Origin: an uncultured SAR86 cluster bacterium
GTDB lineage: Bacteria > Pseudomonadota > Gammaproteobacteria > Magnimaribacterales > D2472
Direction of reading: 5' to 3'
Assembly: GCA_902541365.1 (NCBI GenBank)
Contig: CACBQK010000004.1
Span: 20,903 to 84,902 of the forward strand
Length of the DNA stretch: 64,000 bases
Part shown: piece by piece, positions 61,150 to 62,447 of the stretch
Layout of the letters: every line of letters starts with the position of its first letter
Position numbering within the stretch: the stretch's first letter is position 1
Notes under the pieces: generated by a model
What the model was told of the DNA's origin: nothing
Database searches by the model: none
Seen by the model: only the letters and a program-made list of their open reading frames with translations
Position numbers and translations under genes: made by a program

Positions 61150-61169
61150 ACTTAGTTTATACTATTGCA

Positions 61170-61217
61170 ATGTGTGATTGTTGTGATTGCTGCGAGTGCA
61201 CCTGCTGCTCAAAGTAA
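61170..61217 (+). CDS. Poly-cysteine micro-ORF MCDCCDCCECTCCSK (15 aa; absent from the ORF track)
   Basis: ATG...TAA frame with 8 Cys codons out of 15; TATACT lies exactly 6 nt upstream of the ATG. Confidence 0.6.
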   Translation: MCDCCDCCECTCCSK

Positions 61218-61229
61218 AAATCTGAAAAA

Positions 61230-62447
61230 ATGAAAAGAATATTTTTCTTTTCTGTTCCTTTATTAGCTGCCTTTAATCTTTTTGCTAAAGACGTTTACAT
61301 ATATCCTGGCCCCAACGCTCAAGAAAGACTTCAAGAAGCATTGATTCTAATTGATGAAGGCGATACTTTAATAATTAAAAGTGGCTACTATAAATTTGAA
61401 GACGGATTATCACTTGATGTAGACAATGTGACCGTAAAAGGAGAGGGCATCGATAGCACAATCCTAGATTTTAAAAATCAACAATCTGGTGCACAAGGCC
61501 TATTAGTAACTTCTGATAGAGTCACCCTCAGCGATTTCTCAATACTTGATGCAAAGGGAGATGCCCTTAAGGTAATAGGTGCTAAAGGCATTAGCATGAT
61601 AAACCTAAAAACTGAATGGACAGGCGGTCCTAAAAGCACAAATGGAGCCTATGGATTTTACCCAGTTGAATCAGAGGATGTTCTAATTGATGGCTGTGTT
61701 GCCATTGGAGCCTCAGATGCTGGAATATATGTAGGCCAATCAAAAAATATCATTGTTAGAAATAGCATTGCTCAATATAACGTGGCAGGTATTGAAATTG
61801 AGAACTCATATTATGCAGATGTGTATAACAACTTAGCCTCTCATAACACTGGCGGCATCTTAGTTTTTGACCTTCCAGACTTACCTCAGCAAGGCGGACA
61901 CCATATAAGAGTCTTCGATAATAAATCTATTGATAACGACACAGATAACTTCGCGCCTGAAGGAAATATTGTTGGTGAGGTTCCAAGAGGAACGGGAATC
62001 ATTATCATGGCAAATTCAGATGTTGAGATCTTTGATAATTTGATGAGTGGAAATGGCACGGTAAACCTCTCAATTGTCTCTTATGGAGATGAGACAGACG
62101 ATCCTAACTATTATCCTCATCCAAAAAATATTCAGGTTCATGGGAATACTTATGGGCCAAGCGGTTTCGATCCAGATATTGAAACTGGAGACTTGGCAAA
62201 AGCATTGTTCGAAATAAGTGGGGGGAATATGCCAGATATATTCTGGGACGGCATTGTTCCTCTTTCTCAAATAATATTTGGACAACCAGATGATGAGAAA
62301 CTTATTATCTCTGAAGAGAGCGCAAGTTTTTTAACAATAAAACCAATTAGGTATATGTTGGGATTTTCTGATCCAATTAGTACAAATAAAGAAGACTTTA
62401 AAGGAGAGATAGCTCCTCTTAAAGAGATAAATATAGAAACTTTTTAA
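61230..62447 (+). CDS. Secreted parallel beta-helix repeat protein
   Basis: Signal peptide; YGFYPV, ASDAGIYVGQS, NVAGIEIENS, NTGGILVFDLP repeats; family typically paired with SO2930-like cytochromes. Confidence 0.85.
   Translation: MKRIFFFSVPLLAAFNLFAKDVYIYPGPNAQERLQEALILIDEGDTLIIKSGYYKFEDGLSLDVDNVTVKGEGIDSTILDFKNQQSGAQGLLVTSDRVTLSDFSILDAKGDALKVIGAKGISMINLKTEWTGGPKSTNGAYGFYPVESEDVLIDGCVAIGASDAGIYVGQSKNIIVRNSIAQYNVAGIEIENSYYADVYNNLASHNTGGILVFDLPDLPQQGGHHIRVFDNKSIDNDTDNFAPEGNIVGEVPRGTGIIIMANSDVEIFDNLMSGNGTVNLSIVSYGDETDDPNYYPHPKNIQVHGNTYGPSGFDPDIETGDLAKALFEISGGNMPDIFWDGIVPLSQIIFGQPDDEKLIISEESASFLTIKPIRYMLGFSDPISTNKEDFKGEIAPLKEINIETF

Follow-up and report, generated by a model that had tools for sequence, protein, structure and literature searches.

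The present study describes a cysteine (Cys)-rich micro-gene of 15 codons from the marine bacterial lineage SAR86, found in a 64,000-nucleotide stretch of contig CACBQK010000004.1 (positions 20,903 to 84,902 of the forward strand; assembly GCA_902541365.1) belonging to an uncultured SAR86 cluster bacterium. This stretch is referred to below as the window, and coordinates are window positions on the forward strand unless another genome or contig is named. The micro-gene (61170..61217) encodes the peptide MCDCCDCCECTCCSK, has never been annotated before, and lies directly upstream of genes for a parallel beta-helix protein and a dihaem c-type cytochrome. Its conservation in other SAR86 genomes suggests, with high confidence, that the frame is a real, translated and free-standing gene. 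A first-pass annotation of the window had offered two functions for it, a cysteine-responsive attenuator of the cytochrome operon or a minimal metal chelator. The main message of our analysis is a correction of the first: the small open reading frame (sORF) appears to be a mobile or shuffled cassette that heads the cytochrome operon in one genus only, and not a dedicated regulator of that operon. The reading that we favour, although we hold it with evenly balanced confidence, is that the micro-gene makes a trans-acting micro-metallothionein that would buffer or sequester soft metals.

Conservation of the cysteine frame in SAR86

Read directly from the sequence, the -10 promoter hexamer TATACT (61158..61163) occupies positions -12 to -7 relative to the A of the ATG and is separated from the ATG at 61170 by the six bases ATTGCA. 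The frame that follows (ATG TGT GAT TGT TGT GAT TGC TGC GAG TGC ACC TGC TGC TCA AAG TAA) has eight Cys among its 15 codons, three CC pairs providing consecutive Cys codons. A 12-nt A-rich spacer, AAATCTGAAAAA (61218..61229), which contains neither a terminator nor a Shine-Dalgarno (SD) sequence or any GGAG-like motif, leads to the beta-helix ATG at 61230. The layout given by the first-pass annotation, comprising the TATACT hexamer, the ATG-TAA frame with its eight Cys, the 12-nt gap and the SD-less beta-helix start, matches this reading. In the source genome (1.02 Mb, 34% G+C) Cys accounts for 0.98% of codons, and no second comparable Cys-rich short open reading frame (ORF) was found.

One genome per prokaryotic species was scanned with the back-translated first ten codons of the micro-gene, which returned 30 exact matches, all of them in SAR86 and mostly in other genera and other gene contexts. 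Allowing three mismatches in these 30 bases raised the number to 69 of the 266 SAR86-order genomes, with the mismatches falling almost wholly in spacer codons 3, 6 and 9. A more general pattern, fixing only the ATG and the eight Cys codons, was present in 87 of the 266 genomes, representing ten of 22 genera and three of four families; no match was obtained in the family of the order with the largest genomes. The first-pass annotation had put forward conservation of the Cys frame in relatives, with synonymous TGT/TGC variation, as a check, and such conservation was seen. The micro-gene is usually single-copy, and was found in 18 of 57 near-complete (high-quality) genomes. A reversed control pattern gave no match in the 266 genomes, as against 69 to 87 for the real one. 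Given this control, the rarity of Cys codons and the lack of a second such ORF, the frame lies beyond what the sequence composition would yield by chance.

Among 82 distinct copies, TGT or TGC was found at 654 of the 656 Cys positions, the third base being divided between TGT (314) and TGC (340). Codon positions 1 and 2 of all eight Cys codons were invariant or at least 90% conserved, and position 3 alternated between T and C. The spacing C-x-CC-x-CC-x-C-x-CC was kept, without indels in the array, in more than 100 copies, and the spacer residues varied (D/E/N/K; D/S/K/N at position 6; E/Q/K/N/T). Where position 6 is Ser it is coded by AGT, AGC or TCT, with both AGT and TCT inside one genus; as a change between these two requires at least two base changes, the amino acid was kept through the switch. 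Codons 11-15, which lay outside the first search pattern, still read x-C-C-x-K-stop, and the stop codon is retained directly after codons 13-15, often behind a C-terminal Ser/Ala-Lys. Read in either of the remaining forward frames, or on the reverse strand, the same substitutions would alter amino acids. Taken together, this pattern indicates that selection acts at the coding level on the peptide and not on the DNA. A damaged Cys codon was seen in only three of approximately 90 copies, namely TGA at codon 13 (G165, L125:3824), TTT at codon 5 (G030:C20:2097-2135) and TAT at codon 2 (G060, L187:3551); these may be decaying genes or single-cell assembly errors.

The opposite view, that there is no gene here and that a chance TG-rich repeat or a DNA or RNA element (such as a promoter cassette or a small RNA) carries an incidental Cys frame, is very improbable on these data. 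It draws on the frequency of (TGY)n repeats in public contigs, which match a loose pattern and make up the remaining public-contig matches to our general pattern, all in unrelated organisms. It also draws on a strong position-specific synonymous bias, codon 2 being TGT in 98% of copies and codon 13 TGC in 91%, with codons 7, 8, 10 and 13 mostly TGC, Glu9 encoded by GAG in 86% (32% genome-wide) and Lys15 by AAG in 68% (26% genome-wide). A hairpin within the 3' half of the ORF (alignment columns 25-41) could pair at 88% of the base-pair positions scored across the alignment, but one pair is broken in half of the sequences and compensatory changes are almost absent, and this candidate was rejected. 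Against a non-coding element stand the three-base periodicity of variation, the two Ser6 codon families, the stop codon kept after codons 13-15, the rarity of damaged Cys codons, and the SD sites gained by one SAR86 copy and by phage copies (described below). An Rfam search of 60900-61500 returned chance-level matches only, leaving the element without an Rfam family.

At the beta-helix locus, the Cys frame is confined to the genus of the source genome, i.e. the window and six congeners (L001-L006) whose beta-helix proteins are 89-96% identical, and in 70 more distant SAR86 loci it does not occur at that position. When the seven genomes are aligned, 45 of 48 ORF bases do not vary and the -10 box is kept, and sequence farther upstream cannot be aligned. 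The spacer to the beta-helix ATG is 12-13 nt in all seven loci (12 nt in the window, L002 and L003; 13 nt in L001, L004 and L006). The first-pass annotation had named a frame beginning at TTG 61165 as the one that might be conserved in place of the Cys frame; alignment of the congeners spoke against it, as the TTG start is not conserved, TGT/TGC flips would there be Val/Ala changes, and the frame is continuous with the beta-helix ORF in some congeners only. Where the spacer has 13 nt (L001, L004, L006), the micro-gene read in its +1 frame (GTG..VIVAIAASAPAAQSKNLKN) continues into the beta-helix ORF, so that ORF finders give a product of 430 instead of 409 residues. The relation of the two frames varies with spacer length and is not conserved.

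Promoter geometry of a predicted leaderless mRNA, and phage copies

A TATAAT- or TATACT-type hexamer was found at positions -12 to -7 of the ATG in 73 of the 82 distinct micro-gene loci, and in the same geometry in 36 of 38 SAR86-type copies on metagenome contigs. Positions -6 to -1 were uninformative across the 82 copies, leaving no SD site. With the -10 box so placed, the mRNA is predicted to be leaderless, starting at 61170 in the window. This geometry extends to other genes of the source genome, in which a -10-like hexamer lies exactly 6 nt before the ATG of 48 out of 935 long ORFs, compared with about nine at neighbouring offsets, and in which only about a fifth of ORFs (~21%) have an SD-like motif. 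Leaderless mRNAs thus appear to be common in SAR86, at approximately 4-5% of long ORFs by this -10 placement, which is unusual for a gammaproteobacterium and bears on gene calling. A single SAR86 copy (L139:1692-1739, CACEHH010000025.1) has its -10 box displaced, to approximately 24 nt upstream, and has gained a GAGAGG SD sequence at the right distance. Such a gain is what would be expected if translation of the frame is what matters.

The general Cys pattern was also matched by 23 IMG/VR viral contigs, comprising 14 distinct sequences, and by three metagenome contigs. The phage peptides, MC[SKTR]CCKCC[NS]C[NTD]CC(E), have 13-14 codons and the SAR86 Cys spacing, and end right after the last CC or one Glu later. 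Their genes show synonymous Cys codon variation, do not have the position-specific codon bias of SAR86, and carry an SD site 7-9 nt upstream of the start; they sit in tight spaces among terminase, tail or unknown genes, with the SD of the next gene straight after the stop (for example L262:10272-10313, L263:1642-1683 and L264:5859-5900, among IMG/VR contigs L262-L292). At least two phage backbones are involved, one of relatives of the T4-like Pelagibacter phage HTVC008M and the Methylophilales phage Melnitz, and one of HTVC026P-like podophages; the Cys ORF was absent from the three cultured reference phages HTVC008M, Melnitz-1 and HTVC026P, and no cultured carrier came to light. No conserved partner gene was found in the phage contigs, the neighbours being terminase, tail chaperone and unknown genes. 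The same thiol array under two translation-initiation regimes and in unrelated gene contexts points to a product that acts in trans.

Gene neighbourhoods and the cytochrome operon

Upstream of the micro-gene in the window a SnoaL_3 gene ends at 61149. Downstream, the secreted parallel beta-helix protein (61230..62447, a 405-residue ORF; TIGR03805, E 7e-123) has a weak NosD likeness and is followed by its usual partner, an SO2930-family dihaem c-type cytochrome (62453..63490; TIGR03806, E 6e-109), and by an orphan MerC-family membrane protein (63529..63927; PF03203, E 8e-21) with a Cys-rich C-terminal tail, CKELDCDCHD. These profile matches uphold the identities that the first-pass annotation had given to the three genes.

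Across SAR86 the micro-gene, again with this promoter, stands in front of genes from at least 25 families. The commonest of its neighbours is MerC, occurring in 36 of 85 distinct loci and as the immediate neighbour in 14, followed by an HXXEE membrane protein (28), DUF6249 (21), PepSY_TM (21), SMR (19), Zn_peptidase_2 (18) and a GloB-like hydroxyacylglutathione hydrolase (16), with Cupin, VOC, GFA and DoxX-like genes also recurring. The first downstream gene is a GloB-like MBL protein in 13 loci, an esterase in seven, MerC in seven, the beta-helix gene in six to seven (all in this genus) and HXXEE in four, the others appearing in ones and twos; PepSY_TM is also among the downstream genes. Of the 82 loci, 75 have a co-directional and seven a convergent downstream gene. 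Where the next gene is co-directional, the intervening gap varies between 12 and more than 600 nt, with 66 nt as the median. Neither a -10 box at the ATG nor an SD site of its own was seen for 66 of the 75 co-directional genes. None of the downstream genes of the micro-gene loci is a cysteine- or sulfur-assimilation gene. The surrounding gene set (Zn_peptidase_2, SMR, SDR, VOC, GFA, DoxX-like, HXXEE, PepSY_TM, DUF6249, MerC and GloB-like; window ~59300-64000 and L111-L261) is reshuffled between genera in the manner of a hypervariable island.

These contexts bear on the cysteine-supply sensor, in which ribosomes slowed on the eight Cys codons by scarce Cys-tRNA would alter downstream expression. 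Polycysteine leaderless sORFs of this kind (Ms5788A type, the 'Cys ribulon') head cysteine-metabolism operons in mycobacteria, where an RNA duplex masks the following gene's ribosome-binding site (Canestrari et al., bioRxiv 10.1101/834739). The SAR86 micro-gene resembles them in its predicted leaderless architecture, with the ATG directly behind the -10 box, in its consecutive Cys codons, in its frequent place as the first ORF before co-directional genes, most of which have no start signals of their own, and in being unannotated. It differs in that its downstream genes vary between genera and are unrelated to cysteine or sulfur metabolism, some of them being convergent, and in that the gap of 12 to more than 600 nt holds no conserved pairing partner; a family-wide duplex sequestering the downstream ribosome-binding site was not found, nor was there covariation for a hairpin within the ORF. 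In addition, a codon counter would have no need of the features that the peptide conserves over three families, namely how many Cys it has and how they are spaced, its length and its C-terminal Lys, and the phage copies are ordinary SD-led genes. On the side of a sensor, SAR86 is reported to lack assimilatory sulfate reduction. As a general account of the micro-gene we regard a sensor as unlikely, and the attenuation of the cytochrome operon proposed by the first-pass annotation as the function of the element is not supported, with at least 25 downstream families, convergent cases, no Cys or sulfur genes, a beta-helix context in seven genomes only, and SD-led phage copies.

What stands of that proposal is a local form restricted to the genus of the source genome. 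Here the beta-helix gene has neither its own -10 box at the ATG nor an SD site, and instead has the micro-gene cassette 12-13 nt upstream; within this genus alone, it probably forms the second cistron on the transcript of the sORF. From the G of its start codon an 8-bp hairpin, GAAAAGAA-TATTT-TTCTTTTC (61232..61252), is followed by a U-rich run and constitutes a candidate translational coupling element, lying 14 nt after the sORF stop. Its predicted stability is -6.0 to -7.2 kcal/mol, as against -1 to -2 for shuffled sequences, in all seven loci of the genus, and it does not pair with the sORF itself. A standard scan placed no intrinsic terminator in the spacer ahead of the beta-helix gene. 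When the criteria were relaxed, 16 of 84 loci were positive, seven of these being the beta-helix start hairpin. In translationally coupled upstream ORFs, ribosomes that terminate a short way upstream open up a downstream start codon enclosed in a hairpin. The likeness lies in the sORF stop 12 nt before an SD-less ATG whose G opens the 8-bp stem, and the difference in that this arrangement would be a feature of seven genomes of one genus and not a family property. A ribosome terminating on the sORF would reach the stem, which makes coupling of beta-helix translation to that of the sORF plausible in this genus, although we consider it the less probable outcome, by about one to two. In a sensor of this kind stalled ribosomes would leave the hairpin shut, so that the Cys-demanding cytochrome operon would be made only with plentiful cysteine. 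However, the stem of GAAAAGAA-N5-TTCTTTTC encodes a conserved Lys-Arg and Phe-Phe-Ser, so its conservation may be at the protein level, and in seven close relatives conservation carries no statistical power.

The hairpin is absent at the beta-helix starts of other SAR86 genera. There the beta-helix (TIGR03805) gene often has TATAAT or TACAAT at -12 to -7 (L027, L029, L035-L038; around position 2944-3001) and is seemingly leaderless, or has its own SD site (L039-L046).

A proposed metallothionein-like peptide

The favoured micro-metallothionein can be set out as a series of steps, in which transcription, translation, metal binding and translational coupling are what we infer from sequence. The sigma-70-type -10 box at -12 to -7 would make the A of the AUG the first transcribed base, and 70S ribosomes would initiate on the leaderless mRNA. 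The 15-residue product would then lose its Met, in keeping with the known specificity of methionine aminopeptidase for Met before Cys, to give the mature 14-mer CDCCDCCECTCCSK. The eight thiols of the C-x-CC-x-CC-x-C-x-CC array would bind soft metal ions (Cu(I), Zn, Cd or Hg) as a metal-thiolate cluster, and the peptide might cooperate with the often-linked orphan MerC-type transporter. In the genus of the source genome, the micro-gene promoter probably transcribes the beta-helix, dihaem cytochrome c and MerC genes as well, and the SD-less, hairpin-buried beta-helix start is probably reached by ribosomes that have just left the sORF.

The peptide consists of 53% Cys in SAR86 (53-62% across the family) in CxC and CC motifs. 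The spacers are made up of D, E, N, K, S, T, A and Q, rarely P or G; as exceptions, a 19-residue tail variant contains one Phe, and one Tyr stands at a Cys codon that has mutated. The net charge varies among copies, being -2 in the window and reaching +4 elsewhere. A 15-residue query is too short for profile search or structure prediction. No SmtA/BmtA-type metallothionein (PF02069), a family with His ligands in a zinc-finger-like fold, scored above the cut-off in the 57 high-quality SAR86 genomes, and MCDCCDCCECTCCSK itself contains no His. It is the fixed eight-Cys array, the hydrophilic spacers, the tiny size, the absence of SmtA/BmtA, the capacity of SAR86 to make glutathione and the nearby MerC that lead us to favour a micro-metallothionein.

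Of the 18 high-quality genomes with the micro-gene, ten, spanning three families, have MerC on the same strand at a distance of no more than 6 kb, and in seven of these the distance is within 1.2 kb. The MerC in question is an orphan, since no MerA was found above the cut-off in 21 relatives and a canonical mer operon was rejected on that basis. Dependence of MerC on the micro-gene was likewise rejected, as 47 of 57 high-quality genomes possess MerC and 18 of 57 the micro-gene, so that positional linkage alone is left. The metal chelator linked to MerC, the second option of the first-pass annotation, fits the data better than the attenuator: its MerC linkage recurs well outside the window (36 of 85 loci; ten of 18 genomes), and metal chelation itself remains a prediction.

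With known metallothioneins the peptide shares small size, extreme Cys content, CxC and CC motifs, hydrophilic spacers without aromatics and a C-terminal Ser-Lys, to which the linkage with a gene for a thiophilic-metal transporter, MerC, may be added. The shortest known metallothioneins are the 25-residue Cu-metallothioneins of Neurospora crassa and Agaricus, and ciliate Cd-metallothioneins contain CxCCK-type modules. The micro-gene peptide is approximately half as long as the shortest of these, at 53-62% Cys, its metal binding being predicted. It has no sequence relation to SmtA/BmtA, and differs from metallothioneins further in its predicted leaderless mRNA and in having no adjacent metal-sensing repressor. 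It is possible, and we advance it more tentatively than the metallothionein function itself, that SAR86 and several uncultured marine phage lineages encode the smallest known ribosomally made metallothionein-type peptide, with 12-14 mature residues and eight thiolates, leaderless in the bacterium and tied to an orphan MerC, and that the phage copy is an auxiliary gene that would reset the soft-metal or thiol status of the host.

Several points weigh against this reading. The micro-gene is absent from two-thirds of the genomes, near-complete ones included, and so appears to be widespread but dispensable. The linkage to MerC, which is present with or without the sORF, may be inherited synteny inside one shuffled island. 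Convergence could account for the likeness between the peptides of phages and those of SAR86, 13 residues being too few to prove homology. The position-specific synonymous bias is not explained by the tested hairpin, and operon-leader effects may still operate, given the co-directional genes without start signals of their own.

A trans-acting thiol peptide whose main role does not involve metals is rather less probable, and in our view slightly better placed than the sensor. It might be a scavenger of oxidants or electrophiles, a carrier of Fe-S or persulfide, or a small molecule that inhibits or partners a membrane protein, with phages resetting the thiol status of their hosts. The evidence for a translated product acting in trans applies to it equally, and the GloB-like hydrolase directly downstream in 13 loci, together with the GFA, VOC/glyoxalase-like and DoxX-like genes of the same island, agrees with it weakly. 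However, these neighbours are shuffled and not conserved, the phage copies have no specific partner, and a cluster of eight thiols with CxC and CC is typical above all of metal-thiolate proteins. Glutathione synthetase (gshB) was found in 21 of 21 relatives, by which replacement of glutathione was rejected, and an extra thiol buffer is not obviously needed where glutathione is made in all relatives searched.

Very little speaks for a precursor of a ribosomally synthesised and post-translationally modified peptide beyond the fact that the product is short and Cys-rich, as are the cores of sactipeptides and ranthipeptides. The Cys array begins at residue 2 and leaves no leader region, and no radical-SAM, YcaO, lanthipeptide-type or peptidase/transport gene was seen among the 30 commonest neighbour families (85 loci) or in the phage contigs, so that we consider this origin highly improbable.

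A literature search found no description of the micro-gene peptide or of any SAR86 Cys-rich peptide or metallothionein, and nothing relevant on the SO2930/TIGR03805/TIGR03806 pair, in agreement with the remark in the first-pass annotation that no such element had been described in a gammaproteobacterium. SAR86 bacteria rank among the most abundant surface-ocean heterotrophs. Should the peptide be made, it would represent a gene family overlooked by every annotation pipeline, 15 codons being too short, in a globally abundant marine lineage and its surrounding phages. A metal-binding role would push down the lower size limit known for gene-encoded metal-thiolate peptides, and would open a way to study how streamlined oligotrophs deal with Cu, Cd, Zn or Hg in surface seawater.

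The PF02069 search also returned sub-threshold matches (17-22 bits, cut-off 33) to an ORF of 62-78 residues in 12 of the 57 SAR86 genomes (e.g. G000:C3:19147-19227 in the source genome, and its orthologues), which may be a zinc-ribbon protein rather than a metallothionein.

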